Notes: generated from the letters alone by a model not told the origin. Shown: positions 572-43,019, numbered from the stretch's first letter. The stretch: DNA of 44,087 bases from a virus (IMGVR_UViG_2541047944_000002:1-44087), one strand, 5' to 3'. Translations and numbers: made by a program.

Positions 572-601
572 CGAATACAGGAATCGTATTCGGTCTTTTT
601 T
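572..601. other. attL core (left copy of att direct repeat), within a hairpin plus T-run
   Basis: cgaatacaggaatcgtattcggtcttttttt matches 42990..43019 at about 27 of 30 positions. Perfect 10-bp inverted repeat gaccgaatac / gtattcggtc followed by a T-run. Confidence 0.55.
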
Positions 602-733
602 TAATTGTATTTAAAATCAATTGGTTACAAACGTCTCCCCGAAATTCCCCGAAATTTACTCGAATTTCTGTATTCCGGTCTTTTTTGGTTATATCACAAC
701 CAAAATACATTTAACAATCCATTTACGTTAAAA

Positions 734-1810
734 TCAGAGCAGTAAGTACGTTTTTTCTCTCTCATCAAGATACATTTTTGTTGTCTTCTCCGATGTGTGG
801 CCAAGTAGACGTTGAGCAAATTCTTCCCCACATGTTTCTTTGTACAATCGTCCAGCCAGGCTTCTGATCTCGTGAAAAGTTGGTGGGTTTTCACTGAACT
901 GGATACCTGTTAATTTTCTAGCTGCGACAAATTTTTTTGTCAGGCCGTCCGGGTGAATGCTGCCGTCAGGGCTGTTTTTTCTAATTCCGGCACTGATTAG
1001 ATAATCCCCCCGACTTACCATGCGGCACCGTTCAACTACTGCACCAAGCCGTAAACCAGCGACCGGAAGGCTGAGTGACAGGGGGATAGCAATCATCATT
1101 CCTGTCTTAATTTGCCTGATGTGGAGACGATCATCATAAATATCACTGAACCGCATATTCGTTATGTCTTCGCGACGTTGTCCTGTTACAAGGGCTAAGT
1201 CCATAGCTAATGGGAACCATGCCGGAAGTTGATCTGCTGCCTCCCTGATGCAGTTGTATGTCTTTAGTTTCAGCCGTTCTCTTGTAACTACTATTTTCGG
1301 TGCTCTTGTTGGCGTTACTGGATTTTGAGATATACGCCCTTCAACAATGGCTTCGCGGAACATATCAGATAACACAGAACGCATTGATCCTGCCATCGTG
1401 TTTTTCCCTCCTTCAATCCACAAATCAAGAAACTCGGCAATATGGCGAGTGGTTATTTCTGTCAGTAAGATCTCTCCTAATTTTTCTTTTATTGTTTCCA
1501 GTTGATTTCCCCGAATTTTATAAGTGTTTCTGGACACTTTTCTCCTTATAAGAATCGTTTTGTAACGTTCAATCCAGTCTGCCATAGTAAATGAGTCGAA
1601 CCCTTTAAGTTTTTCAATTAAGGCAGCAGGAGAGTAGTTTTTGTATATATAATGATTTGCTTCAATTGCCTGTGCGATTGCATCTCTTCTTGAAATTTTA
1701 CCTAGTGTAAATTCTTCTTTCGTCAGAGGGTTGCGCCAGTAATATGCTTTGTCCCTCCTTCGATATGTTAAGTTCCTAGGCAAATTGGGATCGTATTTTT
1801 TCCGCTGCAT
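734..1810 (-). CDS. int: Tyrosine site-specific integrase (lambda Int family)
   Basis: 358-aa ORF at the prophage end; C-terminal region resembles lambda Int catalytic domain ([15 protein letters not shown] motif as recalled); adjacent to att repeat. Confidence 0.9.
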
Positions 1811-2063
1811 GTTTTAACTTCTCCAGTAACGGACTGTCTCTCCCTTGTCGCCCATTAGGCTGATGGTGTGTTATATCGGTATCAACCTTATTTGGGTTGA
1901 TATAGAAAGCCTCCGGAACCACCCTGTAACTCCTCCCGTGTAGTTCAGGTGCAGGATAAATGTTTCCATTCCTTGCCCATCGTCTCAGCGTTGATATTGA
2001 TGGTGGGTTATCCGGATATCTGAGTTTTCCCCACGTTTTGAGTGTCACAAGATTCATTGCCAT
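1776..2063 (-). CDS. xis: Excisionase-like small DNA-binding protein
   Basis: Small ORF immediately upstream of int and overlapping its start, the typical xis-int arrangement. Function inferred from position only. Confidence 0.5.
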   Translation of the reverse strand: MAMNLVTLKTWGKLRYPDNPPSISTLRRWARNGNIYPAPELHGRSYRVVPEAFYINPNKVDTDITHHQPNGRQGRDSPLLEKLKHAAEKIRSQFA

Positions 2064-2163
2064 ACCTCTTACGATATGACCGCCAGTAAATATACAGAAT
2101 ACTGGCGGGTGTGGTTGATTTTTAATAATCAGCTATGAAGTTCTAATTTGTATATAATGCAGC

Positions 2164-2352
2164 TCACGAGGACAGAAGTTTCTCGCAATTAAAATTTATC
2201 AGTTTTACTTTCTGCTCTCTGGAAACGCCTGCTTCTTTTTTCCCTGAGAGCATTTTTTCGCATTCTGATTTCGTTAATTTAGATTTTGAATATCTTGTCC
2301 AGTTAGTAGGTGTGCCACCTTCCTTTTCAATAGTGGCGGTAATTTTATACAT
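2164..2352 (-). CDS. Hypothetical protein, Rac YdaC-like (DUF1187)
   Basis: ORF with probable start at internal Met (MYKITATIEKEGG...); recalled similarity to Rac ydaC; synteny with lar. Confidence 0.45.
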   Translation of the reverse strand: MYKITATIEKEGGTPTNWTRYSKSKLTKSECEKMLSGKKEAGVSREQKVKLINFNCEKLLSS

Positions 2353-2539
2353 GAACACCTCCATTATTATTTCCAGTAGTTCGTTTATTCCATCTTGCAA
2401 GTGCTTCTTTTTCACTTCCACTATAGCCGGTTCGGGATTCGCACCCGTTACACTTCGCTCGGTAATATCCTGAAATGGCTTTCACCGTTACTGATGGACA
2501 ACCACAAAATGGACATGGTTTGACTTTTTCATACCGCAT
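2345..2539 (-). CDS. ralR: Restriction alleviation protein Lar/RalR family
   Basis: MRYEKVKPCPFCGCPSVTVKAISGYYRAKCNGCESRTGY...: Cys-rich Lar-family signature as recalled from Rac RalR. Confidence 0.7.
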   Translation of the reverse strand: MRYEKVKPCPFCGCPSVTVKAISGYYRAKCNGCESRTGYSGSEKEALARWNKRTTGNNNGGVHV

Positions 2540-2602
2540 TGTCTTTTCTCTCATAAAATAAAGTTTTGTTATGGCGGCGAGGCTACACCGCCATAGTAAA
2601 TA

Positions 2603-3655
2603 TCAGGAGCCGATATATTCTGGTTTCATATCTGTCAGTGTCGTTTTATACGCCTCATATAATTCTCCCAGATGTGGTCGTGCAGCATTCAGCGTATTTT
2701 CCAGAGCAGTAAATTTTTGTTCTGCTTCCGGATCACCTGATGAAGGCAGGTCATTTATCATCTTCTCAATACGGGCAATAGCATTGAGACGGTGATGACG
2801 CTGAACCACTTTTCCTTTAAGTTCCGTATAGAGAGCGCCAAGTGTATTTTTATGCTCTTCCACTTCCTGCCGAAGTGCTGTTGTTTCTCCGGTGCTTTGT
2901 GCCTGCTCAATACGTTCACGGAAAGCACTGATCCAGTTTTCCCCGACATCCTGCTCAATAATTGTTGTTTCACGTTCCGCACGGCAGGCGGATGTGTTTT
3001 TATGTTCCTGAACCGGATTAATGATTTTTTCCTGTGGTTCGTCCAGTTCGTCCCGGGTGTACACTCCAAGAATCACTTCAGGGCAATAAAGGCGCGCCCA
3101 GCGTTTCAGTGCCAGATAGGCAAGCTGCTGACGAGGATCATCGGCCCATAACGTTGAGTTACGTGTTCTGGCCTGCGCCAGAAGTAACTCCAGTACGCGT
3201 GGTTTGCTCTCTCCGCGTAGTGTTGCCTGGACGCGAACTCCGATCCCGTTTTCATCGACCAGCTTCCAGCCAGGTACACGATATTCTTTCCCTTTGTCGT
3301 TCTTCCTGATTTCAAATTTCCCGATAATTTTTTCCCACGGCCCGAACCAGTCATATTCAATACGCCCGGTTAACGGCCCACGAGTACTGATTACGGCATT
3401 AACCAGTTGCGCTTCATATCCGAGTACACCATTCACAACGAAAGTTTTCTGAGCTACTGCGTAAGGGTTCATTTGCCACTGCATCGCCTGCATGGTGATG
3501 GCCATGCAGTCTGATGGATTTCCCCGGAGGTGTTCCGGTACAGTAGCCATGCCGGAAGCCATTACCTGAGAAAACGTCTGAATTGCAGCCAGAGACTGAG
3601 GGCTGAAAACCGCAACATTAGAGTTAATATTTTCTTGTTGAGTTAATTCGTTCAT
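2603..3655 (-). CDS. recT: RecT/Bet-family single-strand annealing recombinase
   Basis: 350-aa ORF with GGAGG-type RBS, directly downstream of the recE-like exonuclease in Rac-like order. Family call from synteny plus general resemblance, not a verified alignment. Confidence 0.6.
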   Translation of the reverse strand: MNELTQQENINSNVAVFSPQSLAAIQTFSQVMASGMATVPEHLRGNPSDCMAITMQAMQWQMNPYAVAQKTFVVNGVLGYEAQLVNAVISTRGPLTGRIEYDWFGPWEKIIGKFEIRKNDKGKEYRVPGWKLVDENGIGVRVQATLRGESKPRVLELLLAQARTRNSTLWADDPRQQLAYLALKRWARLYCPEVILGVYTRDELDEPQEKIINPVQEHKNTSACRAERETTIIEQDVGENWISAFRERIEQAQSTGETTALRQEVEEHKNTLGALYTELKGKVVQRHHRLNAIARIEKMINDLPSSGDPEAEQKFTALENTLNAARPHLGELYEAYKTTLTDMKPEYIGS

Positions 3656-3666
3656 TGTGTCCTTCC

Positions 3667-6600
3667 TCAGATGCTCAGTGCTTCAAGACGACGAAGATCA
3701 AAGTCGTTTAATTCGTCGGTATAACTTTCGGTAATCGGTGCTGGCCAGTTGTTTGTCTCCAGCGCTTCGTTTATCTGGTGTAGCGTCCGGCGATATTCCT
3801 GTCGACCAAGTTCAAGGAGTTCCTGCGAGGCTTCCACGACTGCCACCCAGTGATAGCCAGCATCTTTGTTGACGAAGATCCAGAAAAATTTGTCCAGGTT
3901 TGCCACATCGCAATACATTGCGGCGCTGAGGTGATAATCACGCTCAATAATTTCACGGTGCAGGCGATCTTTAAGTCGTTCCTGCCGCACATAACCGAGG
4001 CTGACTGACTTCACGTCAGCGCAAATGCTTTCGTATGGCAGCCGGATTTCGATATCAGGACGGACCCTGATTTCCAGCCCGGTTTCTTCATCAAACCCGA
4101 AATAGCTGATTTCAGATTTGCGATCCGGGTGGTTGAGTAGCCTTGCTGCATCGGTATTGTTTTGCAGTGCCGCGTGAATATTTTTTGCCTGTTCATACAT
4201 ATCCGGACTGATAAACGTTTTCCCGGCGTTTTCTTCTTGCTGGCGTTTTTGCCAGTCCTCCAGTGTCACCAGTTCCGGGCGAATTTTCCGTGCGATTTCG
4301 GTTAATTGCTCTTTTGTGCCACTGATGTTGTAAGGCAAAGATTTAGCACGTTCTTTTTTTGCCAGTTCTGGATCTACAGTTTCAATTTGATCCAGAAGCT
4401 GCTCCCGTGCTCCACTGGTTTTCAACAGAGGAGGGAGGCTTGCGTTGTATTCTTTAATACAGGCTTTCATTGCTGATGCTGTGTGTTTTTCCCCCTCAGG
4501 AATACGCCGAAATTCCACCGGAAGCGAACCGTAAAGGATGCCTGTTTCTTCGGCCCCAGCACTTACAGACAGTGGCTGTATAAGAGTGCTGTTGTAGCTT
4601 TCGATCCACTCTTTCATCTGCTCTGGTGTCATCAGTGCTGGCAGACTGGCATTGTGTTTTTTAATGATGGCGATCAGTTCGTTAGAAGTAGTAACCACAT
4701 ATTCAGGAACCGGTACCGGAATGGCATATTCATCAGCGAATTTATCCGTTTCCAGAACATAGCTGTGAATGATCCGCCCACGCAGCAGTGCATCACTTTC
4801 CTCGTTCGGAATAGTTCCGGCAATGTGCCGCCCGTGGTAATACATCAGGCTGATACGGGCATCCTTCAGCATCGTGCTGCTTATTCCGTTGGCGGAGTGA
4901 TAAACCTCGTTCGGGAGGTTTTCATAGCGGCCTGGCTCGAAATATGACGGCCACATGATTTCAGTTGCTACAGGAGCTGACGCTTCGCCAGTTTCATCAC
5001 TGCAATTGCGATGCGGATCGCTGTCAGCATTCTCATTGTGCGGATGTTCAGCGCCTTCCATTTTCTCCGGCTCATTTTCCCGAACTTCAACCTGATTCTC
5101 GTCATCGAATGTTTCCTGATATGTTGCGTCGCCCATCACCGCACCACAGTCAGGGCAGTTATCCCCGCCAGACTGACCGCAGGCATTGCAAACTTTTTCC
5201 ACTTCCTGTTGCGCCACTGGTTCAGGCTGTTTCGTTTCTGGCTCGTTTTGTAACGCATTTGGGCTGTTTTGTTCCGCTTTCTGGTCGTTCTGTTCCGATT
5301 CTTGTTGGTTCTGGTTCACTGAATCGCGGGTTTCAATCCCCTTCACCCATTTCGGATCATTCGGGTCGCTAATCCCCTCAACAAATTCTCCGCGAGAGGC
5401 AGCCAGCAATTTGTCGGCATCGACAGGATTTTTGGGCGGAATGGTTTTCCGGGCTTCATGAAGTTCTGCCCGCAGTTTCTGATATTTCGCATCAACAGAA
5501 TTTACCTGTGACTGAGCATCCAGCGGCTGCGTGTCCTGATGATGTTCAGTTGCATCCGGTTCCACTGTTTCAGCCGTTGCCTGTTCATCTGCCATTGCGC
5601 AAGATGGTTGCGGTTTTTCTTCATCATCCTGTTTTTCTTCTTCTGTTACCCGCTGCGGCATCGGGGCAGAGGAGCGACCGCAGGCAATATCCACGATTTC
5701 CGGATCAGGGTTGGCATGATCGGTTTCAGTCAGTACTTTGTTCAGATATTCAGTGACGTGTGCGGGGATAACCTCGATCCCAATTGGTGCTTCTTTTACG
5801 GACGCAACCACGATGGCGCGGGAATAATCCAGCCCGCCAGGCATGGCGATGAATTTGTCGCGGAAAACAGAAAAGGGCGGTTTATTTTCAGCGATAATTT
5901 CCTCGACACGTTTAGCGTGTGCCGGATGAAGGTTATAAATGTCCACGTCCATTGAACGGGCCAGTACGCCAGTGGCTACATCGCGTGCCAGTGACGTCAG
6001 ATCGTGGACGAAACCTTCGCCGCGATCGGTGAGGTTCCCGCCGCCAGCATTAGCACCGGAAGCCGTGCGAGTGATGCGTGAAACACGATTTCCTTTCATC
6101 CACTCTTTTGTCAGCAGACCGCGATCGGTGTAGTCTGCGTCCAGGTATGCTTCGAAAAAAGCAGTCATCAGCCCCAGACTTGAATTGCCTGGATTAGGGA
6201 AAACTTTGTCAGTATCACGAACCAGTCTGTGAAGATCGCGAATCTCCAGCAGGTCGAGCAGGCTGGTTTTGTGGGAAACAGCCAGGGCAGTAACAGCTGG
6301 TAGTTCTTCAGCCCGTGCAATATGTAATGTCTGGAGTTCGTCGCGTGAAACGTGCGTTACCGGTTTTTCGCTGCCGTGTTGAGCAAGCCAGCGAATGGGC
6401 AGCTCTTGGCCAGAAATCGGGAGTAGCATATTCTCCTCAATCTCAGTCATGTCTTCGCCATTAACATTGGTATTGTCAGTGCTGGCTGGTTTGTCCTGCG
6501 CAGAGGATGAGGGCGCGATAAATACCATTGTGATGCCATCTTCCCCGCCTTTTTCGTAACGGTTGCAGAATTCCGTATCAAATACGCCTTCTGGTGGAAG

Positions 6601-6813
6601 GTCATCAACAACGGGCAAATTGACGCGAACAGGTTTTTTAAAGTCATCTTCATCGTAGCCAGCATCGTCAATCGCAACAGCACCACGGGAGATGGCAATG
6701 GATAATTTTTTCGCTTCAGCCCAGTAGAAACCGCCTTTAATACCGAGACGTTTTCTTACTTTGTCATTTTTTGCTTCGTAATACAGTGGGTAAACTTGTT
6801 TATCGGTGCTCAT
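3667..6813 (-). CDS. recE: Exodeoxyribonuclease VIII (RecE)-like, enlarged 1048-aa form
   Basis: Long ORF upstream of recT-like gene; C-terminal nuclease region and Rac-like context; contains acidic low-complexity stretches and a Cys-rich segment ([16 protein letters not shown]). Confidence 0.65.
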
Positions 6814-6883
6814 TGTTTTTTAACCTCAACTCAGATTAAAATTACTGCGAGTGATGAATAAATGTCCCAGGTTCTTCACTCAG

Positions 6884-6914
6884 GCCTGCACAGTGTGCAG
6901 GCTTTCTTTTTTTC
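6884..6914 (+). terminator. Plus-strand-oriented intrinsic terminator in the racC-recE intergenic region
   Basis: gcctgcaca-g-tgtgcaggc stem followed by tttcttttttt; the reverse complement lacks a U-run. Confidence 0.4.
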
Positions 6915-7188
6915 AGATTTCACCTTTTAATTTCATTGCAATCAGAGTTGCCAGAAATTCGGCTTTTTTTTCTGCTGGCAGATTCTTTCCTATGTGCACC
7001 AGACACATTTTTTTAACACCATCGTTAAGTGTTTTAACGTTGCCTGATGGACCGTCGATATCAACCACAGTGAATGGGGTTTCTTTATTTTCTGTCTTAA
7101 TCACGTAGCCAATACGCTTTCCTTCTAGGCTGACTTCGTGAACAATGTCATCAGTAGTAACAACAGTGGCTTCATAACTGGTAATCAT
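6913..7188 (-). CDS. RacC-like protein
   Basis: ORF beginning MITSYEATVV with AAGGAG RBS; recalled similarity to Rac racC; position upstream of recE. Confidence 0.5.
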   Translation of the reverse strand: MITSYEATVVTTDDIVHEVSLEGKRIGYVIKTENKETPFTVVDIDGPSGNVKTLNDGVKKMCLVHIGKNLPAEKKAEFLATLIAMKLKGEI

Positions 7189-7262
7189 GTTTTTCTCCTT
7201 AATTAAGGTTGAGCGAATCCCTGCCATTGCTGGCATAAATTCAGTTTCGGATAGTCAGTTAA

Positions 7263-7439
7263 TTAAAGTTCGTGTGCCATCTGGTCTTTTTCGGCACAGA
7301 TTTCACTACAATATTTTTTCATTTCCGTCGTTGGTATAACTCCACGCATGAAATGAAGTGGTCTTGTAATGATTTTGCTTTCTTCAATTTCTTTATTGCA
7401 AAGGTGATAAGCACATTTTATTTTCTTAGTCATTACCAT
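7263..7439 (-). CDS. Small zinc-binding protein, Rac YdaE-like (58 aa; below ORF-track cutoff)
   Basis: Found by manual translation: [21 protein letters not shown]...[15 protein letters not shown]; Cys pairs; sits between the racC-like and kilR-like genes as in Rac. Confidence 0.45.
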
Positions 7440-7654
7440 GACTCCGCCTTTACAGGTAAACCATCACGACCGAGGAAGACTTTAATCATGCAGTCAGAAA
7501 TGCATGTTTTTGTAGTCAGGCTACGAATATAAAGTTTTCGCTTTTTAATATTGTTTGCCGAGGCGATATATGTCCGACCTTCATGAAGAACATAATCGCC
7601 AGGGGTCACACACTGACGTGGTATTTCATCAGTTCCGAAGTGATGAGCAATCAT
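7433..7654 (-). CDS. kilR: KilR-like cell-division inhibitor
   Basis: 73-aa ORF from internal Met with GGAG RBS ([29 protein letters not shown]...); recalled as Rac KilR; kil position in the leftward early operon. Confidence 0.55.
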
Positions 7655-8051
7655 AATTATCTCCATTTTTACAAATGAATTTTGTCGATGCGGTGCCTGG
7701 TGCCTCCAGGTGACGTTAACCAGTTAACAATTAACGCCGGATAATCCACCCATAACACTGATGCTTTTAACTGTGCCGCGTGCGCTTAGCCGCATTCACC
7801 GCATCACAAAATTCACTTTAAAAAGGGCGGACATCAGCCGAACTTCAAGAAAAAAACTGATGCCGCCAGGACTACACACAGCAATGTCGTTATTTACAAC
7901 CGGAGGCGCACTCACACCATTTAAATTTAACAGACAAGACCGACTCTTTATGAATACCGGAAATGCGCCTTCGTGTTGTGCCCGGTTTTATTTCACCACC
8001 TCCGGGCTTTGGTGGTATCTTTACTGAAGTTCTCACACAACCAGTAAGGAA

Positions 8052-8348
8052 ATGAATATGCCAACGTATCTCGCCAGAGTAGAACTATATAATGCTGAGC
8101 CAGAGGATTACGAAGGGCTTCATAAATATATGCTCTCACTAGGATTCAGGAGAACGATCCCCCATGGAGATGGTTCGTATAATCAACTCCCGGACGGAAC
8201 TTATGTTTCCGAAAAGGGCGGTGATATTTATCAAATTCGCAGCCAGATATCTGACTATGCAGACCTACTATCCAGGTATCGCGCGTCTGTTTTTGTTTGC
8301 GAATTCAGTCAATGCGCATGGTATTTATACCCCGCCAAGACCCGGTGA
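8052..8348 (+). CDS. Hypothetical soluble protein at the sieB-equivalent locus
   Basis: 98-aa ORF with AAGGA RBS, opposite in orientation to the surrounding leftward operon, between kil and the repressor; no recognisable family. Confidence 0.5.
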   Translation: MNMPTYLARVELYNAEPEDYEGLHKYMLSLGFRRTIPHGDGSYNQLPDGTYVSEKGGDIYQIRSQISDYADLLSRYRASVFVCEFSQCAWYLYPAKTR

Positions 8349-8537
8349 ATATCCTGCACGGCCTTCTGCTTTGTAGAAGGCTTCTTCGCTATCATAATCG
8401 CCAGATTCCAGTGCTTCTTTAGCCAGCCAGATGCGTGCCCCTGTGCCTGCATTTGGCTCCAGTTGCTGGAGGCGTTTTGCATCTTCCAGGAGTAGAGCGA
8501 TAACGTGTTTTAATTCTGTCTCGTTCATTTTACTCAC
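8325..8537 (-). CDS. Hypothetical small protein (Rac YdaF-like position)
   Basis: Small ORF downstream of the repressor gene on the same strand; name by position only. Confidence 0.4.
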   Translation of the reverse strand: MSKMNETELKHVIALLLEDAKRLQQLEPNAGTGARIWLAKEALESGDYDSEEAFYKAEGRAGYSPGLGGV

Positions 8538-15669: not shown

Positions 15670-15784
15670 AAACGGTTTGCGGGAAAAGGAGAGTTAAGTA
15701 GAATTGCTGCGGGTGCTTGAGGCTATCTGCCTCAGGCATGAACACCAAAAGGCAGATAGAGAAAAGCCCCAGTTAACATTACGC

Positions 15785-15850
15785 GTCCGGCAAGACGCTT
15801 AACATTAATCTGAGGCTCAATCTATGAACGGCAAATCTAGGTTAGCCTCT
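15785..15850 (-). ncRNA. sok: Putative Sok-like antisense RNA (approximate coordinates)
   Basis: Inferred from hok/mok organisation: antisense partner expected opposite the mok start/SD region; candidate minus-strand TTGCCT-17-TAACCT promoter just right of it. Not directly verifiable by eye. Confidence 0.3.
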
Positions 15851-16036
15851 TACGCGCCGAAAGGCAAGGAGAAGCAGGCTATGAAGCAGCAAAAGGCGAT
15901 GTTAGTCGCCCTGATCGTCATCTGTATTACCGTCATAGTGACGGCACTGGTAACGAGGAAAGACCTCTGCGAGGTACGAATCCGAACCGGCCAGACGGAG
16001 GTCGCTGTCTTCACAGCTTACGAACCTGAGGAGTAA
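15824..16036 (+). CDS. mok: Mok-like in-frame leader ORF of the hok locus
   Basis: 70-codon ORF sharing frame and stop with hok, as for mokC/hokC in K-12 (recalled). Confidence 0.5.
   Translation: MNGKSRLASYAPKGKEKQAMKQQKAMLVALIVICITVIVTALVTRKDLCEVRIRTGQTEVAVFTAYEPEE
15881..16036 (+). CDS. hok: Hok/Gef-family type I toxin
   Basis: MKQQKAMLVALIVICITVIVTALVTRKDLCEVRIRTGQTEVAVFTAYEPEE: 51 aa, single TM helix, near match to recalled HokC/Gef. Confidence 0.8.
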   Translation: MKQQKAMLVALIVICITVIVTALVTRKDLCEVRIRTGQTEVAVFTAYEPEE

Positions 16037-18036: not shown

Positions 18037-18062
18037 CTCAATCTGTTATCCGGGGCTATATT
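18033..18062 (+). promoter_or_regulatory. Late promoter PR-prime (TTGACT-18-TATATT) with qut-like leader
   Basis: -35 TTGACT overlaps the Q stop codon; -10 TATATT 18 bp downstream; two hairpins in the leader. Confidence 0.5.
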
Positions 18063-18124
18063 CCTCACGCGCCAGCAAAATCTGGCGTCGGGATTGGCGT
18101 CCCGGATGTTTACGGAGCGATATG

Positions 18125-18146
18125 AGACGCGCCCGCGTCTTTTTTC
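18125..18146 (+). terminator. tR-prime-like intrinsic terminator
   Basis: agacgcg-cc-cgcgtct followed by tttttt, about 65 nt downstream of the promoter. Confidence 0.55.
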
Positions 18147-18308
18147 ATATCGTTTGCACAGTCACATTCGCGATTTATGGCGGGCTGTGTGGGGGAGCCG
18201 AAAGGCTCGCCGGTTTCCGTACCCGGTTACGCCAACCCTGCACAGTTCGCCACCAGTTCGATTGGCGTCGTCGGTGGCGATAATTTCCAAATGTACGGAG
18301 TTATCGTT

Positions 18309-18866
18309 ATGACCACTCAAATCTCTGTTGAAACTCTCTCCCCGATCACCCATAACCAGATTCCTGTTATTACCACCGAACTTTTGGCGCAGCTTTACGG
18401 CACTGAGCCGGTGCGTATTCGCCAGAATCATCATGAGAACAAAGTACGCTTCGTTGAAGGGAAACACTTTTTCAAAGTTGTTGGTAATGACCTTAAAGAA
18501 TTGCGGGTCGCTTTAAACTACTCACAAAATCCAGTTTCACCCAAAGCCCGCTCCCTCATCCTCTGGACAGAACGAGGCGCAGCACGCCACGCCAAAATGC
18601 TCGAAACCGATCAGGCATGGGATGTGTTCGAAAAACTGGAAGACTGCTATTTCAGTCAAAAGGATCCGTCAACGCCAGTTTCATGCCAGAAAAGTTACGA
18701 CACGCGAGTTCTCTGTTATCAGAGAGGCGGTGTCACTGTTTCCACAATTCAGTTACGGGATGATGATATTGTTATTTCCCTTGAGTCATGGCTGGAACTG
18801 GCGAGAGCCAATGGTTGGTTTGTTGTTCGCAGAGATAAACTGGTGGAAAGGTTGATGCAGCTTTAA
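18309..18866 (+). CDS. ORF6N/Bro-N-like DNA-binding protein (antirepressor-like cargo gene)
   Basis: ATG at 18309 with GGAG RBS; family call from memory and uncertain; sits between tR-prime and the holin. Confidence 0.45.
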   Translation: MTTQISVETLSPITHNQIPVITTELLAQLYGTEPVRIRQNHHENKVRFVEGKHFFKVVGNDLKELRVALNYSQNPVSPKARSLILWTERGAARHAKMLETDQAWDVFEKLEDCYFSQKDPSTPVSCQKSYDTRVLCYQRGGVTVSTIQLRDDDIVISLESWLELARANGWFVVRRDKLVERLMQL

Positions 18867-34841: not shown

Positions 34842-35144
34842 ATGGAAGCCGTAGAAATCCCACTGGTTGCTGACAATCAGACTTTTGCCACCACAATTAA
34901 CGGTTCGGTTTATCACCTGTCTGTCATCTGGCGAGGCGAGTACTGGGTTCTGGATCTTGCTGACAGCAATGGCTCCGCCATTATATCAGGTATACCGATG
35001 ATTACGGGGGCTGACCTGCTGGCACAGTATCGATATATGGATCTGGGTTTTTCTCTGGTGGTGCTCTGCGACGTGGCAGGGCAGGAGAATCCGACGCAAT
35101 TCGATCTTGGAACGCTCTCACACCTCTATGTTTTCACGGAGTAA
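34842..35144 (+). CDS. Tail protein
   Basis: Gene order. Confidence 0.4.
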   Translation: MEAVEIPLVADNQTFATTINGSVYHLSVIWRGEYWVLDLADSNGSAIISGIPMITGADLLAQYRYMDLGFSLVVLCDVAGQENPTQFDLGTLSHLYVFTE

Positions 35145-35146
35145 CA

Positions 35147-36181
35147 ATGTCGAAAAACTGGATGCGTCACTTTGAATTATTGCTTGTTGATGATAAGGGC
35201 GACGGGATAAAAATTTCTGAGCTTAAAGTCACTTTCAATATTCAGAAAATGCCTGCGACCATATTCAATGGATTCGTTGGGAATTTTAAGGTTTATAACC
35301 TGTCCCCTACCACTCAGAACCGGATTATGCAGAAGGAGTTTTCGCGTATACAGGTTATTGCCGGATACAAGGGGCAACCGGATGCAGCAGGTAATTATCC
35401 TGATGAAAACGTTGGTATGATATTCAATGGAGATATCCGTTTTACTGTCACTGGTAAAGATAATGCCACAGACAGTTGGATCATGTTGCAGTGTATTGAC
35501 AGCTGGGAAGGCCATCTGAATGCAAGTGTGAAAACCACAGTGGCAGCTGGCTGGAAGTACAGCGATCTTTTCAGTCTGGGTATGAAATCATTCGAACCAT
35601 ATGGCATCGAATCCGGCGCAGTTCCTGACATGCCGGAAACGGTATTTCCCCGAGGGCGCGTTGTTTATCAAAACACATCAAGGTTGATGAATCATATCGC
35701 AGGGCAGTGTAAAGCTAACTGGTGGTATGAAAATAATCTGGTAAATATTGTTCCTGAAGATAAATATATTGGTGTTGCTACGGTGTTGAATGCTAACACC
35801 GGGCTTATCGGTATGCCACAGCAGACGATGGGAGCTGGCGTAAATGTCAGATGCCTGATTAATCCAAATATTAAGCTCGGTGGGCTTATTCGTCTGGATC
35901 AGGCATCTGTATACCGTGCCTCTTTGAGTAATGACCAGGTAGCGAAATCGCCAGCACGACTGGATGAGTCTGAAAGCGACGGTAATCTCTACGTTAACGG
36001 TCTGCCAGGCATGTCACAGCCTGCCAGCATTAATACTGACGGTGATTACATTGTGGGCAGCATTGATTATACTGGCGACACCCGAGGGCAGGCGTGGTAT
36101 ATGGACCTGCTTTGCCTGGCTAAAGGTGGCAAAGAACTATTGGCAAAAGGCACTTTGGACAAAGTCGGAGATGTAGAGTGA
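35147..36181 (+). CDS. Baseplate hub-like protein (Mu gpP-like position)
   Basis: Gene order. Confidence 0.45.
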   Translation: MSKNWMRHFELLLVDDKGDGIKISELKVTFNIQKMPATIFNGFVGNFKVYNLSPTTQNRIMQKEFSRIQVIAGYKGQPDAAGNYPDENVGMIFNGDIRFTVTGKDNATDSWIMLQCIDSWEGHLNASVKTTVAAGWKYSDLFSLGMKSFEPYGIESGAVPDMPETVFPRGRVVYQNTSRLMNHIAGQCKANWWYENNLVNIVPEDKYIGVATVLNANTGLIGMPQQTMGAGVNVRCLINPNIKLGGLIRLDQASVYRASLSNDQVAKSPARLDESESDGNLYVNGLPGMSQPASINTDGDYIVGSIDYTGDTRGQAWYMDLLCLAKGGKELLAKGTLDKVGDVE

Positions 36182-36513
36182 AAAAAGTATTTTTTTGTTT
36201 ATTCTTGGCCCTGCCGTTAACAGTTTCGGCGGCAACGCAGTGCGGACCATTCCGCTTTGATGCTGGTAATGATGGCCTCATGCACATCAATGGTCAAAAG
36301 CCAGAAACACAAAAAATGACCTTTTTGAAACAAAAAGACGATTTCGATAATGTCATGATGCAATGGATGTTACCTGATCCTAATACTGGACGTTGGTTAG
36401 GTATGGACTACATCAAACGAAACAAAAAAGCGATCCTCAACGTTGAAGTTATCCGCAAAAATATGGACGAGCCTCGGGAGTTCTGGACGTATGATTGCCG
36501 GAAGGTGAAGTGA
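36178..36513 (+). CDS. Secreted hypothetical protein inside tail cluster
   Basis: GTG start overlapping upstream stop (GTGA); signal peptide MKKVFFCLFLALPLTVSA-ATQC; two Cys; no structural role evident. Confidence 0.5.
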   Translation: MKKVFFCLFLALPLTVSAATQCGPFRFDAGNDGLMHINGQKPETQKMTFLKQKDDFDNVMMQWMLPDPNTGRWLGMDYIKRNKKAILNVEVIRKNMDEPREFWTYDCRKVK

Positions 36514-36585
36514 ATTACATTGGCGTCCAGCTTCTGCAGAACAGCATGGATGCGCCGAAAATCATCGGTTCCTTTCCATGCAAAA

Positions 36586-36620
36586 AGATTGTTGATTAAT
36601 CACCCGTAATTATAATGTGA
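36586..36620 (+). promoter_or_regulatory. Sigma70-type promoter TTGTTG-16-TATAAT for the 36653 gene
   Basis: gattgttgattaatcacccgtaattataat: near-consensus -10 with 16-bp spacing, about 30 nt upstream of the ATG. Confidence 0.45.
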
Positions 36621-36652
36621 TACTTCTACTTTCACGATAAGGAATTTGTCGC

Positions 36653-36892
36653 ATGTTCGGATTTGATAAATTAATAACTCCAAAAATCATCAACGTTCTG
36701 TATGGCATCACAATGTTACTTCTGGTTGTTGCCGCCATTATAACGTTTGTTAATGGGAAGGCTGCTGGCGCTTTAGTGCTTTTGTTATGTGCTGTATTTT
36801 GCCGAATATTCTTTGAGTGCATCATGGTTTCATTTAAAAACAATGAGTATCTTCGCCGAATAGCTGAAGCGTTAGAAGCAAACAAGCAGTAA
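36653..36892 (+). CDS. Small two-TM membrane protein inside tail cluster
   Basis: Two hydrophobic helices (ITMLLLVVAAIITFV; ALVLLLCAVFCRIFFECIMV); own promoter and terminator. Confidence 0.55.
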   Translation: MFGFDKLITPKIINVLYGITMLLLVVAAIITFVNGKAAGALVLLLCAVFCRIFFECIMVSFKNNEYLRRIAEALEANKQ

Positions 36893-36910
36893 TGAAACTT
36901 CAATAATGAA

Positions 36911-36932
36911 CCCGCCACCCGGCGGGTTTTTT
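36911..36932 (+). terminator. Intrinsic terminator after the 36653 gene
   Basis: cccgcc-accc-ggcggg followed by tttttt. Confidence 0.6.
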
Positions 36933-36951
36933 ACTTTCTGGAGACATATGA

Positions 36952-37704
36952 ATGCCCGTTTCTTTAAGCGCTCAACTTGGTAGCAAAGAACAGGCCGATG
37001 TAAGACTTGCTGGCTCTGTCATGTCGGCGCTGCGTGTTTCTATGCCCGGCATCGTCCAGTCATTTGATCCGGACACGGTAACAGTGGTTGTTCAACCTGC
37101 GATTAAAGGCTATGAGCCGGACTCAAATGGAATCAACCAGTCGACGACATTACCCCTGCTGGTGGATGTGCCAGTGGTATTTCCGCGCGGCGGAGGCTGT
37201 ACGTTGACTTTTCCGGTAAAAGCCGGTGATGAATGTTTGGTGATTTTTGCCGATCGTTGTATTGATTTCTGGTGGCAGAGCGGCGGGATACAGGAGCCTG
37301 TCGATGACAGAATGCATGATTTATCGGATGCGTTTTGTATTGTCGGTCCCCAGTCGCAGGCAAGGAAGATTAGCGGTATTAATACCAGTGCCACACAGTT
37401 GCGTAGTGATGACGGCAGCACCTATTTTGAGCTTAATCCTGATACCAGGAAAATTAAAATTGTCGCTCCGGGGGGGCTTGATGTGGTTGCCCCCCTGGCT
37501 GATTTTTCTGAGAAAGTAACCATTCATGGCCTGTTAACCTGGATGGGGGGCATGGTGGGGTCTGTTGTTTCTGGTGTGGCTTCAAAAATCACTGGTGCTG
37601 TTGAGTTTTTGGGTAGCGTGAATGCTAACGGCAAGCCAATCGATGATACGCACACTCATGGCGGTGTTCAGTGCGGTGGAAGCAATACCGATGGGGTAAA
37701 CTGA
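36952..37704 (+). CDS. Baseplate spike/assembly protein (P2 gpV / Mu gp45-like)
   Basis: Position and size in the Mu-like baseplate block. Confidence 0.55.
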   Translation: MPVSLSAQLGSKEQADVRLAGSVMSALRVSMPGIVQSFDPDTVTVVVQPAIKGYEPDSNGINQSTTLPLLVDVPVVFPRGGGCTLTFPVKAGDECLVIFADRCIDFWWQSGGIQEPVDDRMHDLSDAFCIVGPQSQARKISGINTSATQLRSDDGSTYFELNPDTRKIKIVAPGGLDVVAPLADFSEKVTIHGLLTWMGGMVGSVVSGVASKITGAVEFLGSVNANGKPIDDTHTHGGVQCGGSNTDGVN

Positions 37705-38057
37705 TGCGATACAGACGTGAAGACGCCGATGGCGATTACACCTTTGGCAGCGGTGATGACACCTGGCTGATTAACTCACCGGAGGCCGTGGCGCAGGCGG
37801 TAAAAACGCGATTCGAATTGTGGTATGGGCAATGGTTTCTCGACACCACCGAGGGGACTCCGTGGATCCAGTCCGTACTCGGTAAGCAGAAGCCGGAAAC
37901 CTACAACCTGGCGATCCGTAAGCGCATCCTCGAAACGCGGGGCGTTAAATCAATCCTCTCTTTCAATACGACGGTGGATACCACGACCCGACGTGTCATG
38001 TTTTCCGCTGAAATCGACACTCTCTATGGAATAACGACTGTTACATCGGAGGCGTAA
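37704..38057 (+). CDS. Baseplate protein (P2 gpW / Mu gp46-like)
   Basis: ATGA-coupled small ORF before the J-like gene. Confidence 0.5.
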   Translation: MRYRREDADGDYTFGSGDDTWLINSPEAVAQAVKTRFELWYGQWFLDTTEGTPWIQSVLGKQKPETYNLAIRKRILETRGVKSILSFNTTVDTTTRRVMFSAEIDTLYGITTVTSEA

Positions 38058-39256
38058 TGGCTCTGAACCTTGATTCTCTCGGTTTATCTGCAAAGGTAAC
38101 CGCGGAGGGGATCAGTGCGCCTGATTATCAGACGATACTCAGCACCCTGATTAGCTATTTTCAGCAGATTTATGGTAGTGATGCCTACCTCGAACCGGAC
38201 AGTAAAGACGGTCAGATGGTGGCTCTGATGGCGCTGGCGATTCATGATGCCAATAATATGGCGATAACTGTCTACAACTGTTTTTCACCAGCAACCGGCT
38301 ATGGGGCCGCACTGACCAGTAACGTGAAAATAAATGGTATTTCACGTAAAGGCGCGACGAATTCTACGGTTGATTTGCTTCTTACAGGAACTGCCGGAAC
38401 AACCATCATTAATGGCAGCGTGAAAGACAGTAATAATGTGATATGGCGTTTGCCTGCTTCAGTGGTGGTCGGCGTGGATGGTACAGTGATGGTGACCGCA
38501 ACATGTTCCGTCAGTGGTGCAGTGGCGGCGCTGGCTGGAACTATCACTGAAATTAATACGCCAACCCGTGGCTGGGTTTCGGTAACCAATCCTGCTGTAG
38601 CTACTGTAGGCACTCCAGCAGAAACTGATGCGGAGTTACGTATCCGCCAGTCGCAAAGTGTTGCGTTGCCATCAATAACCCCATTTGAAGCACTGGATGG
38701 TGCTGTTTCTAATGTTACCGGTGTAACCCGCCACAAACTCTATGAAAACGATACTGGTTCGGAGGACGGTAACGGGTTACCGCCACACTCTGTTGCTGTA
38801 ATTGTGGATGGCGGTGATGTGACGGATATTGCTCAGGCTATCAGAGGGAATAAAGGCCAGGGGACAGCCACTCACGGTACAACATCCGTTATGGTTCCGG
38901 ATAAATACGGCAATCCCCATGTAATCAAGTTCTCGCGTTCCAGTGATGTACCTGTTTATGCCCGGATCAAATTAAAAGTTTTTACGGGTTATACCTCACA
39001 GATAGGGCAGCAGATCCAGCAGGCTATTTCCGACTATATCAATAGTCTGACGATTGGTGATTCGGTCCTTTTAAGTCGCATTTACTCACCGGCGAATCTT
39101 GGCGTGGTGAGTGGCGGGAATGCACGCTATTACGATATTCAGGAACTGACGATTGGGAAATCCCCGGGGGCTTTGTCGTCATCAAACATTGATATCAGAT
39201 ACAACGAATCTGCGTCCTGTACCCCGGAAAATATCGTTATAACGGTGGAGTCATGA
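38057..39256 (+). CDS. Baseplate J-like protein (Mu gp47-like)
   Basis: 399-aa ORF in canonical order. Confidence 0.6.
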   Translation: MALNLDSLGLSAKVTAEGISAPDYQTILSTLISYFQQIYGSDAYLEPDSKDGQMVALMALAIHDANNMAITVYNCFSPATGYGAALTSNVKINGISRKGATNSTVDLLLTGTAGTTIINGSVKDSNNVIWRLPASVVVGVDGTVMVTATCSVSGAVAALAGTITEINTPTRGWVSVTNPAVATVGTPAETDAELRIRQSQSVALPSITPFEALDGAVSNVTGVTRHKLYENDTGSEDGNGLPPHSVAVIVDGGDVTDIAQAIRGNKGQGTATHGTTSVMVPDKYGNPHVIKFSRSSDVPVYARIKLKVFTGYTSQIGQQIQQAISDYINSLTIGDSVLLSRIYSPANLGVVSGGNARYYDIQELTIGKSPGALSSSNIDIRYNESASCTPENIVITVES

Positions 39257-39933
39257 GCAAATACACCGAACTAATCACGAACTACCACGCCACCAAACCT
39301 AAATTTCTTGCGCATGTTGATCTGATGACCCAGCCACTTATTGATGTTGCGGCTGCCACCAGAGGGCTGATTACTGCATTTGATATTGACTCTGCGGTTG
39401 GTGTGCAACTTGACATTCTGGGATTGTGGATCGGACGTAGCCGTGTTGTCAGCCAGCCTATCTCAGGTGTCTATTTCAGCTGGGATACCGACGGGCTTGG
39501 ATATGATCAGGGGGTATGGCAGGGGCCATATGATCCTGATTCTGGATACATGTATCTCAGCGATGAAACTTATCGTGTCATTCTTAAAGCGAAGATTGCG
39601 ATTAATAACTGGGACGGACGGAATGATTCGCTTCCGGCAATTCTTGACGCGGCAACAGCAGGATCCGGGCTGCGAATGCAGATTGTCGATAACCAGGACA
39701 TGACGATATCGGTCTGGGTCTTTCCTGATACTGATATTTCAGATGTATCGCGTGAGTTAATTGCTGCAATTAAACAGGGATATCTCACAGTAAAAGCCGC
39801 CGGTGTGTGGGCAGGTGGCATTGAAACACCTTCGGTGGAAACCCCATCGGAAGGTTCAAAATTTTTTGGTTTTGATATGGATAACGAATTCATCAGTGGT
39901 TTTGATGTAGGGGCATGGGGAGTATTACTCTGA
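39253..39933 (+). CDS. Tail protein (P2 gpI / Mu gp48-like)
   Basis: Gene order directly upstream of the fibre gene. Confidence 0.5.
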
Positions 39934-40604
39934 TGGCAAAAAATGACTTTAAAGCATTCGCAACGGGTAAAAATGCCAATGTTATGTCGCAGGAGGAATG
40001 GGAAGCGTTGCCTGCGCTTTTATCCGGATTTACAGCAGGGAAAGCATCCAGTGCGCAAGTCAATAAGGTTATTCGGCAGGCCAGCTTTATTGCTGCAGCT
40101 CTGGCCCAGTTTGTAAGTGACAAAACGCAACGGGATGTGCTTGATAATGGTGATCTGCCCGGTTTTGTTGAATTGCTGGGATCGGGGTTTGCTGTTGAAT
40201 ACCTGAGCCGCAAAAATCCGTTTGGCGATATCAAATCGGACGGCACAGTGAAAACGGCTCTCGAAAACCTTGGTTTGGGAGAAGCGGCAAAACGGAATGT
40301 GGGAACTGGGGAAAATCAGATACCTGATATGTCATCATATGCATCAGGTTCAGGCTGGCGAAAAATGCCAGATGGTTCAATTGAACAGTGGGGACGAATT
40401 AGTTTTCCTAGTGAACACGGGCCTGTATCCGCCAATGTTTCATTCCCGATTCCATTTACACAGACACCGGGCATTGTAATTGTGTGCGATGGTGGTTTCG
40501 GGGGCGGGAATATGTGGGGGGCGACTAACTGGAGCACTACCGGCTTCATAGCTCACTGCAATTATGGTCTTGAAGGTGGTGCGTTTTTCGCTAAGGGCTG
40601 GTAA
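39933..40604 (+). CDS. Tail fibre protein: constant N-terminus plus variable C-terminus (current orientation)
   Basis: Contains crossover site at 40258..40283; Gly-rich C-terminus; followed by a tail fibre assembly gene. Confidence 0.65.
40258..40283. other. Left 26-bp invertase crossover site (gix/pix-like) inside the fibre gene
   Basis: ctctcgaaaaccttggtttgggagaa; 20 of 26 match the reverse complement of the right site, 14 contiguous identical. Confidence 0.55.
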
Positions 40605-41047
40605 TGATGAAATATCTGTACGTAAACAACCTGGCATATCCTTACGAACTTCAGTCTCTTTATGTTGAAAAAGGTGAGTGGCCTGAAGAAAAAGGTGTTG
40701 ATATAGACGAAGTAATTTTCAGGGAATATTTCTATGATACACCACCAGAAGGAAAATACAGATGTGTCGGAGAAGATGGACTGCCTGCATGGGTAGATAT
40801 TCCTCCACCAACACGTGAAGAACAAATTGCATCAGCCGAAACTAAAAAGCAGCAATTGATTAATCAGGCCAACGAATACATCAACAGTAAACAATGGCCA
40901 GGTAAAGCATCAATTGGTCGTCTGAAAGGTGAGGAACTGGCGCAATATAATTTGTGGCTGGATTATCTGGACGCACTGGAAATGGTCGATACTTCCAGTG
41001 CGCCAGATATTGAATGGCCTACGCCTCCGGCAGTTCAGGCCAGATGA
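40604..41047 (+). CDS. Tail fibre assembly protein (Tfa / Mu U-like)
   Basis: 147-aa ORF after fibre gene; conserved C-terminal motif shared with the convergent minus-strand paralogue (DYLDALEMVDTSSAPDIEWP vs DYIDAVTATDTSTAPDVIWP). Confidence 0.65.
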   Translation: MMKYLYVNNLAYPYELQSLYVEKGEWPEEKGVDIDEVIFREYFYDTPPEGKYRCVGEDGLPAWVDIPPPTREEQIASAETKKQQLINQANEYINSKQWPGKASIGRLKGEELAQYNLWLDYLDALEMVDTSSAPDIEWPTPPAVQAR

Positions 41048-41612
41048 CATCCGGCGCGGTGCTCGTATCTGTTGCCGTCACCGCGTCAATGTAATCAAGC
41101 ACGGCGTTAAGCCGGGTGGTTTCTGCCTGAGTCAGTTTCCGTCCGGCCTGTAATTTCAGCTGAATCAGACTGATGGAAGCCATTGCAGCATCAATCAGTG
41201 ACTGGCGCTGTGCTTCTGCCGCTTCTACTGCGGCACCGTGTTGTGCCTCAGAATCTGTCACCCATTTCTCACCATCCCATTTATCATATGGCGTTAACGG
41301 TGAAAGCGTGACATAACCGTTTTTGATGGCACCGATATAATCCACTGTAACAGCAGCACCATTTTCAATTGAGTAAACAGTCTCATTGCGATGGTCTTCT
41401 TCATGGCTCCATCCCTTACCTGTAAATACTGCCACTCTTCCCGGAATGTTTTCGCCCGGGTCAATACCAGTGGAACAGGCGGGCATACTTACGCCAGTAT
41501 TAATATATTCATCAGACCAGCCCGTATACTCAGATGTTTCAGCATCATAATAAAAACAACGCATATCGCCCGGCACTGTAGCCAGCCCATTTTCATCAAA
41601 AACAGGTTTCAT
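41019..41612 (-). CDS. Alternative tail fibre assembly protein (Tfa-prime)
   Basis: Convergent paralogue of the Tfa gene within the invertible segment. Confidence 0.65.
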   Translation of the reverse strand: MKPVFDENGLATVPGDMRCFYYDAETSEYTGWSDEYINTGVSMPACSTGIDPGENIPGRVAVFTGKGWSHEEDHRNETVYSIENGAAVTVDYIGAIKNGYVTLSPLTPYDKWDGEKWVTDSEAQHGAAVEAAEAQRQSLIDAAMASISLIQLKLQAGRKLTQAETTRLNAVLDYIDAVTATDTSTAPDVIWPELPEA

Positions 41613-42109
41613 TATTTAGCCCTCACCAGAAAGTTAAATGCAATATTTCGCGGTCTGACAGCAACAAAATTCACACCATCACCCACAGAGTTACTGGTGA
41701 AATTAAATCGTGAAAATCCTGGCTGATTTCCGGCGATACCATCATGAAAGTTAATTGCGTGGCCCGCACCATCGCCTATATTCCCGGCAAACTGAGAAAA
41801 GTTTGTAGCTGCCTGCCAGCTTAATAATTCGCGACCACCGTCTGCACCTCGCCCGTCATCCCAGATACGAATGAAATCACCGCGGGCTTCAGGTAATACC
41901 AGCGAAGGAAACACTTTCGCCAGCACAGGATAATCAGTGGCAGAGAATTTCGCGCCGTTGAACTTCAAAAACACCATACTGGACCAACTGTCGATGACAG
42001 AATTTGGCATTGCAGCGGACGGCCAGAAGAACGGAACGCCAATAGCTGGAGCACCTTCTCCCAAACCAACGTTTAAGAAAATGCAGAGGTAACAGCTAAC
42101 TGGCATCAT
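41612..42109 (-). CDS. Alternative tail fibre variable C-terminal segment (promoterless in this orientation)
   Basis: Reads through the right crossover site in frame (…FLNVGLGEG…, compare …LENLGLGEA… in the expressed fibre); Gly-rich like the expressed C-terminus. Confidence 0.6.
   Translation of the reverse strand: MMPVSCYLCIFLNVGLGEGAPAIGVPFFWPSAAMPNSVIDSWSSMVFLKFNGAKFSATDYPVLAKVFPSLVLPEARGDFIRIWDDGRGADGGRELLSWQAATNFSQFAGNIGDGAGHAINFHDGIAGNQPGFSRFNFTSNSVGDGVNFVAVRPRNIAFNFLVRAK
42056..42081. other. Right 26-bp invertase crossover site (gix/pix-like)
   Basis: ttctcccaaaccaacgtttaagaaaa, imperfect dyad, resembles recalled hix/gix consensus; 55 bp upstream of the invertase gene. Confidence 0.6.
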
Positions 42110-42136
42110 CCCCGGTTTTTATTCAGGGGGATAATC

Positions 42137-42691
42137 ATGCTTATTGGCTATGTACGCGTGTCAACAAATGACCAGAACACCGATTTGCAACGTAATGCAC
42201 TGAACTGCGCGGGATGTGAGCGGATTTTTGAGGATAAAATCAGTGGCACTAAGTCCGACAGACCGGGGCTGAAAAAACTGCTCAGGACATTATCGGCAGG
42301 TGACACTCTGGTTGTCTGGAAGCTGGATCGGCTGGGGCGTAGTATGCGACATCTGGTCATTCTGGTTGAGGAGTTGCGCGAACGAGGCATCAACTTTCGT
42401 AGTCTGACTGATTCAATTGATACCAGCACACCAATGGGACGCTTTTTTTTCCATGTGATGGGTGCCCTGGCTGAAATGGAACGTGAACTGATTGTTGAAC
42501 GAACAAAAGCAGGACTGGAAGCTGCTCGCGCACAGGGACGAATTGGTGGACGACGTCCCAAACTTACACCAGAACAATGGGCACAGGCCGGACGACTAAT
42601 TGCATCAGGAGCTCCTCGCCAGAAGGTGGCGATTATCTATGATGTTGGTGTGTCAACTTTGTATAAGAGGTTTCCGGTCGGAGATAAATGA
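42137..42691 (+). CDS. pin: Serine DNA invertase, Pin/Gin/Hin/Cin family
   Basis: MLIGYVRVSTNDQNTDLQ... with catalytic Ser in the VRVS motif; C-terminal HTH; adjacent to invertible segment. Confidence 0.9.
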   Translation: MLIGYVRVSTNDQNTDLQRNALNCAGCERIFEDKISGTKSDRPGLKKLLRTLSAGDTLVVWKLDRLGRSMRHLVILVEELRERGINFRSLTDSIDTSTPMGRFFFHVMGALAEMERELIVERTKAGLEAARAQGRIGGRRPKLTPEQWAQAGRLIASGAPRQKVAIIYDVGVSTLYKRFPVGDK

Positions 42692-42989
42692 AACCGTAGC
42701 ACGTCGTATGCAAGAACGTGCCACGGCTGGCTGATGGACGTTCGATAGCGCGAGTTTGAATGAAAATCAGCCGGAGATGATTTTACATAATTGCTACGGA
42801 ATTATTCAATACAGGAATTGCTTGTGTCTGCATGGATTGACCTGAAATAGTCCCGAAAATTTCTCTAAAAAACCCGAAAAAAATGGTAACTAATTGAATG
42901 TATTAATATGTAATGGTACGTGTTAGGGATTAAAAGATGAGCATGAATTTATTTAACGCATTGATTCTAAAAATTTTGTTGCTTGTTGA

Positions 42990-43019
42990 CGAAAACAGGA
43001 ATCGTGTTCGGTCTCTTTT
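42990..43019. other. attR core (right copy of att direct repeat)
   Basis: cgaaaacaggaatcgtgttcggtctcttttt; matches 572..601 at about 27 of 30 positions. Confidence 0.5.

Follow-up and report, generated by a model that had tools for sequence, protein, structure and literature searches.

The window analysed here, a stretch of 44,087 nucleotides of viral DNA (IMGVR_UViG_2541047944_000002:1-44087), contains a prophage with host DNA on both sides, yebY on the left and pphA on the right (Table 1). The two host genes are separated by 42,418 bp of phage DNA, counted repeat to repeat. When a composite of both flanks was used as the query, yebY and pphA were found as uninterrupted neighbours in 5191 of 5426 complete E. 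coli genomes, which bears out a preliminary description in which they were given as adjacent genes split by 42 kb of phage DNA. The prophage identity proposed there also holds, as the inserted DNA carries an integrase gene, an excisionase gene, an early region like that of Rac and a complete late region of the myovirus type. An imperfect repeat (repeat family D9) marks the two junctions, with 32 of 37 positions identical. Three mismatches fall in the first 31 bp and five in the whole 37, in agreement with the repeat of about 30 bp and about three mismatches described initially, and shuffles of the two junction zones (n = 30) gave at best 24 of 37 identical positions. A search of the junctions for tRNA and tmRNA genes found none. 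Rfam matches place a small RNA (sRNA) locus there, formed by sdsR (also called ryeB) and its antisense partner ryeA (sraC). The insertion does lie between yebY and pphA as first described, but the site is more than an intergenic spacer. The start of pphA was set according to the 657-nt length of its RefSeq homologues; the mechanical open reading frame (ORF) begins at TTG 43152.

Table 1. Features of the prophage, its junctions and the host flanks. Positions are counted from the first letter of the window; signed distances are counted from the centre of the terminator loop.
Feature	Position	Strand	Basis or remark
yebY, left host flank	1-342	+	ORF of 113 aa, Pfam DUF2511; RefSeq match is YebY family protein
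ryeA (sraC), antisense sRNA body	462-606	-	Rfam RF00101, 180 bits
sdsR (ryeB), sRNA gene, complete	503-602	+	Rfam RF00111, 118.1 bits (gathering score 38), model positions 1-100 of 100
SdsR Rho-independent terminator	568-602	+	Terminator scan, fold, Rfam structure line
attL imperfect repeat (B-O-P')	572-608		Repeat family D9; three-way alignment with empty site
Exchange block ACAGGAATCGT in attL	577-587		Bounded by host T576 and phage A588; 42995-43005 in attR
Prophage DNA	588-42994		Rac-like early region and myovirus late genes
IHF-consensus site AATCAATTGGTTA (H'-like)	615-627	+	+33 to +45; perfect match to WATCAANNNNTTR
Three tandem 10-bp units CCCCGAAATT / CCCCGAAATT / TACTCGAATT, candidate P'1-P'3	637-666	+	+55 to +84
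int, lambda-family tyrosine integrase	734-1810	-	358 aa; Pfam PF00589, PF22022, PF09003
xis, excisionase	1776-2063	-	Pfam PF07825 Exc, E 6.5e-14; overlaps int start; RefSeq "excisionase" in homologous prophage
pinE-type DNA invertase	42137-42691	+	Last phage gene before attR; Pfam Resolvase and HTH_7
First candidate P-arm site CCCGAAAATT	42852-42861	+	-148 to -139; kept as YYCGAAAW in both clades
Second candidate P-arm site CCCGAAAAAA	42873-42882	+	-127 to -118; CTCGAAAAA in most E. coli relatives
IHF-like site ATTCAATTAGTTA	42887-42899	-	One mismatch to consensus; block kept in both clades
attR imperfect repeat (P-O-B')	42990-43026		Exchange block 42995-43005; equals empty site from 42995 rightwards
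ryeA promoter and first ~55-60 nt of RyeA	43006-43120	-	Stranded at attR, now facing phage P arm
pphA, right host flank	43155-43811	+	Pfam Metallophos; RefSeq pphA

Since the Rfam match to sdsR extends through 602, the hairpin at the left junction, which had been called terminator-like, is the real Rho-independent terminator of SdsR/RyeB, and the insertion therefore lies inside a bidirectional sRNA locus. The stem (568-578/586-596) has 11 pairs, of which the inner 10 are perfect Watson-Crick pairs. It encloses a 7-nt loop (579-585) and is followed by a run of seven T residues (596-602), as expected from the perfect 10-bp hairpin and T-run noted at first. The predicted fold has an energy of -15.8 kcal/mol (z -3.9), and the right copy of the repeat does not fold (z -0.1). 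By comparison with the empty site, host sequence reaches 587 and the last ~15 nt of sdsR (588-602) are supplied by the phage. Full-length sdsR is regenerated at attL, with a terminator that folds like that of the empty site. The phage base A588, which replaces a U-G pair by U-A, was considered as a stabiliser of the terminator and rejected, the predicted energy being identical. The full ryeA body would extend to a terminator near 372-410; the 3' ends of RyeA have been placed at +261 to +270 (PMC6610125). As a separate observation, the 5' end of the Rfam SraC_RyeA consensus (AAUUAAAAAAAGACCG; minus strand, 596-606) is the phage-derived attL sequence and not that of the E. coli attB (CAGATAAAAAGAGACCG, empty site L001). 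The Rfam alignment of RyeA may contain lysogen junctions, or species with a natively phage-like sequence.

The two junctions were aligned with the empty site of ATCC 11775. In attL, the host sequence runs through 587 and the phage sequence begins at 588; in attR, the phage sequence runs through 42994 and the host sequence begins at 42995. Re-joining the halves gives attB as CGAATACAGGAATCGTGTTCGGTCTCTTTTTATCTGT and attP as CGAAAACAGGAATCGTATTCGGTCTTTTTTTAATTGT, with core sequences CCGAATACAGGAATCGTGTTCGG and GTTGACGAAAACAGGAATCGTATTCGG, respectively. A K-12 terminator primer in PMC6610125 also reads GAATCGTGTT, and G at the position of 588 is therefore the host allele and A the phage allele. 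The alignment confines strand exchange to the 11-bp block ACAGGAATCGT common to attP and attB. The block consists of the 7-nt terminator loop and 2 bp on each side. All mismatches of the repeat, whose position relative to the crossover region the preliminary description had regarded as critical, lie outside both the block and the loop. The phage record PP818812.1 holds the reconstructed attP as one stretch, with 95.8% identity over 1.5 kb, and is identical to it across the core and the P' arm sites. An IMG/VR locus, L013, is likewise in attP configuration. Because attP is contiguous in these two sequences, the repeats are a classical attL/attR pair, as they had been taken to be, and the core is present in the empty site. 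The partition into host T and phage A recurs in about 66 of 68 independent attL sequences, and also in the attR junctions that carry the E. coli right flank.

Inverted half-sites occupy the stem arms, CGAAAAC and CGAATAC in attP and CGAATAC and CGAACAC in attB. The loop AGGAATC (579-585) probably represents the 7-bp overlap region, and the stem arms, with the consensus CGAAnAC on each side, are predicted to be inverted core-type sites of the integrase (Int).

Int is a full-length homologue of lambda Int. Its catalytic domain matches PF00589 (E 8.7e-17), and its arm-binding domain matches PF09003 with 29.7 bits (cut-off 22). The isolated N-domain structure of lambda Int (1kjk) matches residues 8-59 (E 3.5e-4), and residues 8-353 align with lambda Int in the structure 5j0n (E 3e-72). 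The blocks TGQRr, KTG, FHEIRSL, LLGHTS and MY are conserved relative to 5j0n; these presumably hold the catalytic residues of lambda Int (R, K, H-x-x-R, H and Y). Int shares 41.5% identity with HK022 Int and 39% with the integrases of 434 and HK97. The domain matches show an Int that retains the arm-binding domain and would accordingly be of the heterobivalent type.

An Int of this type is expected to use arm sites, and the CCCGAAA-type repeats had been proposed for this role. They lie exactly where first reported, ccccgaaatt at 637-646 and 647-656 and cccgaaaa at 42852-42859 and 42873-42880. The decamer CCCGAAAWWT occurs three times in the window against 0.59 expected, and 4 of 100 shuffles gave a count as high. 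As these motif counts are only marginal, the case for arm sites rests on conservation. The integrase search of genome contigs found two close relatives only, and scans of IMG/VR widened the comparison. The set comprised E. coli relatives, a clade whose Int is ~74% identical (L064-L066) and the Salmonella phage ZC-S1_prp. On the left side, the relatives share a near-invariant core and T-run, a variable spacer, the consensus for integration host factor (IHF), a second variable spacer and the three units. Within the IHF motif AATCAA-NNNN-TTR, ATCAA is invariant, the NNNN positions vary and TT is nearly fixed (one locus has TTT, the others GTT). The ~74%-identity clade has the units CCTCGAAATT / CCTCGAAATT / TCCTCGAATT, preceded by a divergent spacer on the side of the IHF site. 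In ZC-S1_prp, too, the arm units and the IHF-consensus positions are largely unchanged, and the stretches that separate them from each other and from the core have diverged. On the right side, five loci of the E. coli clade (L013, L081, L099, L113 and L115) read ATTCAACCAGTTA at the IHF-like block, differing only at N positions. The second P-arm site is replaced nearby in the Salmonella-type clade by CCGAATT or CAGAATT, depending on the locus, and the evidence for sites in the P arm is weaker than that for the P' arm. Together with the arm-binding domain of Int, the conservation of the units in diverged relatives supports the CYCGAAWTT units, three in P' and two in P, as candidate arm-type Int sites. 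The attP would then have the lambda layout, spanning about -150 to +85.

Several observations concern variants of the attachment site. A second, degenerate copy of the right half of the core (GTATTCCGGTCTTTTTT; compare 586-602) lies at 671-690 on the plus strand, after the third arm unit, and is kept in both Int clades, including the ~74%-identity clade. In one IMG/VR prophage (L018), a clean deletion exactly between the half-core copies has removed the whole P' arm. We considered the second copy (659-690) as a tandem terminator and rejected it: its fold is no better than that of shuffles (z -0.7) and the terminator scan is silent. The copy might function as a secondary recombination or termination element. 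The junction L005, from Shigella flexneri SFBU1023, carries several substitutions and deletions in the attL/sdsR terminator (CCATTTCCTGGACCCAATACAGGAATCATGTTGGTC) beside a 95%-identical integrase, and is either decayed or an assembly error. In the IMG/VR loci L102 and L108, the P arm is of the E. coli clade and the P' arm, which meets it at the core, is of the Salmonella clade; next comes a truncated integrase of which residues 193-358 are left (54% identity). The arrangement resembles that of a prophage that entered beside an older remnant at the same site. Finally, the record PP818812.1 (L002) is named "Actinobacillus phage vB_Apl-pPE4", yet its attP matches the E. coli sdsR terminator. Its Rac-like genes are ~95% identical to those of E. 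coli prophages, and the host label appears doubtful.

Taken together, the element is very probably a temperate phage that entered the 3' end of sdsR through site-specific recombination of the lambda type. Its attP carries a sequence nearly identical to the distal half of the sdsR terminator, CGAAAAC-AGGAATC-GTATTCGGTCTTTTTTT, and exchange occurred within the 11-bp block, probably with the loop as the overlap. Int would bind the inverted stem arms as core-type sites; such a stem-loop arrangement is known for integrases and phages that use tRNA anticodon stem-loops. Being heterobivalent, Int would place its N-terminal domain on the three P' units and on the two P-arm sites at about -148 and -127, with IHF bound at the consensus sites between the arms and the core. 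Upon integration, the phage half of attL restored sdsR to full length, and the terminator now has a perfect stem and an extended T-run. ryeA was split from its promoter, which stays at attR, and pphA was moved 42 kb away from the sdsR promoter.

Some points weigh against parts of this reading. Excision, Int binding and the cleavage points are predicted from sequence only. Two attL sequences depart from the host-T/phage-A partition, L006 with G at the position of 588 and L060 with A at that of 576. These could reflect polymorphism of attP or attB, or exchange at another point. The terminators of attL and attB are equally stable, at -15.8 kcal/mol each, and improved termination would depend only on the longer T-run. 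As to the arms, the second P-arm site does not occupy the same alignment columns in the two clades, and the arm units resemble the core half-site, with CCGAA in both, which would allow core-type recognition instead. In line with these last two points and with the weak count of the decamer, the insertion and the core might be as described while the CCCGAAA-type repeats are not arm-type sites. They might instead be recognised by a different protein (Xis, Fis or a phage regulator), serve as additional core-type sites, or have been preserved for some other reason, for instance as part of the 3' untranslated region of the int transcript. We regard this alternative as unlikely, though serious. Int has a lambda-type arm-binding domain, and the three units are kept at exact 10-bp spacing over ~26% divergence of the integrase, whereas the spacer from the IHF site to the units changes. 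Moreover, the number of sites (3 + 2) and their distances (+55 to +84; -148 and -127) mirror what we take to be P'1-P'3 and P1/P2 of lambda attP.

A further alternative is that lambda-type integration did occur but left a locked-in, defective prophage, whose att repeats are relics of an element that neither excises nor forms particles. Defects of some degree are found in most E. coli prophages. The near-identical copy in strain PEC422 has two frameshifted genes, and relatives have decayed, L018 lacking the P' arm and L005 having a decayed attL. In the window, however, no interruption affects int, xis, the two att sites, either arm or the ORFs examined for functions in head, tail, lysis and replication. 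A deposited phage genome has the same int and attP, and L013 is in attP configuration. A defective prophage is therefore improbable in our view. A target-site duplication left by a transposable phage was also considered, since the tail and baseplate genes are similar to those of transposable myoviruses and the late region, like that of Mu and its relatives, encodes a contractile tail and an invertible fibre segment of the Pin/Gin type. This reading, like mere chance similarity of the repeats, is vanishingly improbable and was rejected. The repeats are 37 bp long and imperfect; one copy is host DNA that empty sites already contain, and a free phage genome carries the other without a break. The window shows lambda-type int and xis and no transposase gene, and shuffles did not exceed 24 of 37 against the 32 observed.

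Lambda-type integration into sdsR probably has consequences for the genes around the site. The published primers for ryeA promoter mutations (PMC6610125) map to ~43050-43120, on the attR side, and the ryeA body lies at attL. Because promoter and body are on opposite sides of the prophage, RyeA should be largely lost as an antagonist of SdsR. A search of the P' arm for a phage promoter able to drive the orphaned ryeA body found none on the minus strand. SdsR itself probably stays intact and full-length in the lysogen. The pphA mRNA has been reported to arise mainly from read-through of the sdsR promoter (PMC6610125). In the lysogen, pphA is probably cut off from this promoter and instead lies downstream of rightward phage late and pin genes. 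Restoring sdsR necessarily breaks its antisense partner ryeA, and in E. coli it also separates pphA from its reported promoter. We found no report in the searchable literature that links prophages at the sdsR site to pphA.

Among 5426 complete E. coli genomes, 228 carry the same sdsR::int-xis junction, which also occurs in dozens of prophage predictions from IMG/VR; this prophage family may alter an sRNA circuit that depends on sigma-S. It is possible, although we propose it only tentatively, that lysogeny at sdsR in ~4% of sequenced E. coli amounts to regulatory conversion of the sigma-S stress circuit, with the RyeA antagonist removed, transcriptional interference on sdsR relieved and pphA disconnected from the sdsR promoter. 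If so, lysogens and non-lysogens would differ in SdsR-dependent phenotypes and in pphA expression. At the level of annotation, attL, attR, attP and attB can be placed with single-base precision, and an "intergenic" hairpin is re-annotated as the functional terminator of an sRNA.

Both the type of insertion and the site are already known, and the event is an ordinary one at a published phage attachment hot spot. The ryeA/ryeB hot spot was described by Balbontin et al. (2008, J Bacteriol 190:4075), as cited in PMC7380047, PMC3603311 and PMC3333887. According to the account of that work in PMC7380047, the Salmonella phage PhiW104 attaches in the last 23 bp of ryeB, and a change in transcription was shown there in Salmonella, with ryeA down and ryeB up. 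Consistent with the published definition of the hot spot, the exchange block lies within the last ~23 bp of sdsR. A Citrobacter prophage has been named after its target RyeB in an island catalogue (PMC10111431), and ryeE in E. coli is another reported sRNA gene targeted by phages. PhiW104, as far as these descriptions portray it, uses the same locus and sub-site, with an att core in the last ~23-26 bp of ryeB/sdsR, internal to ryeA; the 3' end of the sRNA is likewise rebuilt by phage DNA and the 5' part of ryeA replaced. Compared with PhiW104, which is known through such descriptions, the window has an E. coli host and pphA in the right flank, so that pphA is uncoupled too, and Rac-like early genes are combined with myovirus late genes in a mosaic phage body. 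The same core is found in the Salmonella phage ZC-S1_prp, whose integrase shows 73% identity over the 72% of the protein that aligns.

Comparison with lambda and HK022 extends from the proteins to the layout of the site. The integrases are homologous over their full length (39-41.5% identity), including the arm-binding domain, and an Exc-family excisionase is present. As in these phages, int lies beside the P' arm, the candidate arm sites number 3 + 2, and IHF-consensus sites lie between the arms and the core. In contrast to lambda, the core and arm sequences differ, attP and attB are identical only within the 11-bp block, and attB is part of an sRNA terminator hairpin, whereas that of lambda lies between gal and bio; the protein contacts here are predicted. 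Phages and islands that target tRNA or tmRNA genes likewise use a symmetric stem and a 7-nt loop as the core, and a phage copy of the 3' end keeps the RNA gene intact. Unlike such targets, sdsR is overlapped by an antisense sRNA, so that restoring one gene disrupts its partner.

The remaining gene content was taken from the RefSeq annotation of the near-identical, same-site prophage in PEC422, together with PHROG and Rfam matches. The early region includes ralR/RalA RNA, recT, recE, kilR, a repressor gene, ydaT, replication genes and hokD/sok. The late region comprises lysis genes, terminase, portal, major head protein, tail sheath, tape measure, baseplate, tail fibres and the Pin invertase. 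PHROG matches cover RecE, RecT, the repressor, terminase, portal, major head protein, sheath and tape measure. Inverted repeats of 20 bp (40265-40284 and 42055-42074) flank a tail-fibre segment within the invertible segment region (39915-42691), whose alternative fibre and assembly genes lie on the minus strand. The Rac prophage of E. coli K-12 shares ralR/RalA, recT, recE, kilR, a ydaT-family gene and ydaU/V/W-like replication genes, and the early region has 90-92% DNA identity to Rac-type phage records. Rac is integrated at ttcA. In contrast to Rac, the integration module here targets sdsR between yebY and pphA, and the late genes encode a contractile tail. Identity with the Rac prophage was therefore rejected, the likeness being limited to early genes.

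Three minor observations concern RNA elements and the flanks. Rfam matches to c4-a1b1, isrK and C4 antisense RNA lie at 18056-18866, immediately upstream of an anti-repressor ORF (18177-18866) and overlapping it, and the module resembles immI of P1 or IsrK/AnrP of Gifsy-1. Type I toxin-antitoxin RNAs were found at 2168-2346 (RalA, the antitoxin of RalR; 219.6 bits) and 15711-15886 (sok), the latter accompanied by hokD in the homologous annotated prophage. Finally, pphA matches NinI-like Ser/Thr phosphatases of phages (PHROG 246, E 2.6e-87), and its neighbour yebW (stretch 43812-44087) carries the annotation YdfD/YebW family. The right flank of attB, although conserved, may be the fossil of an older phage insertion at the hot spot.

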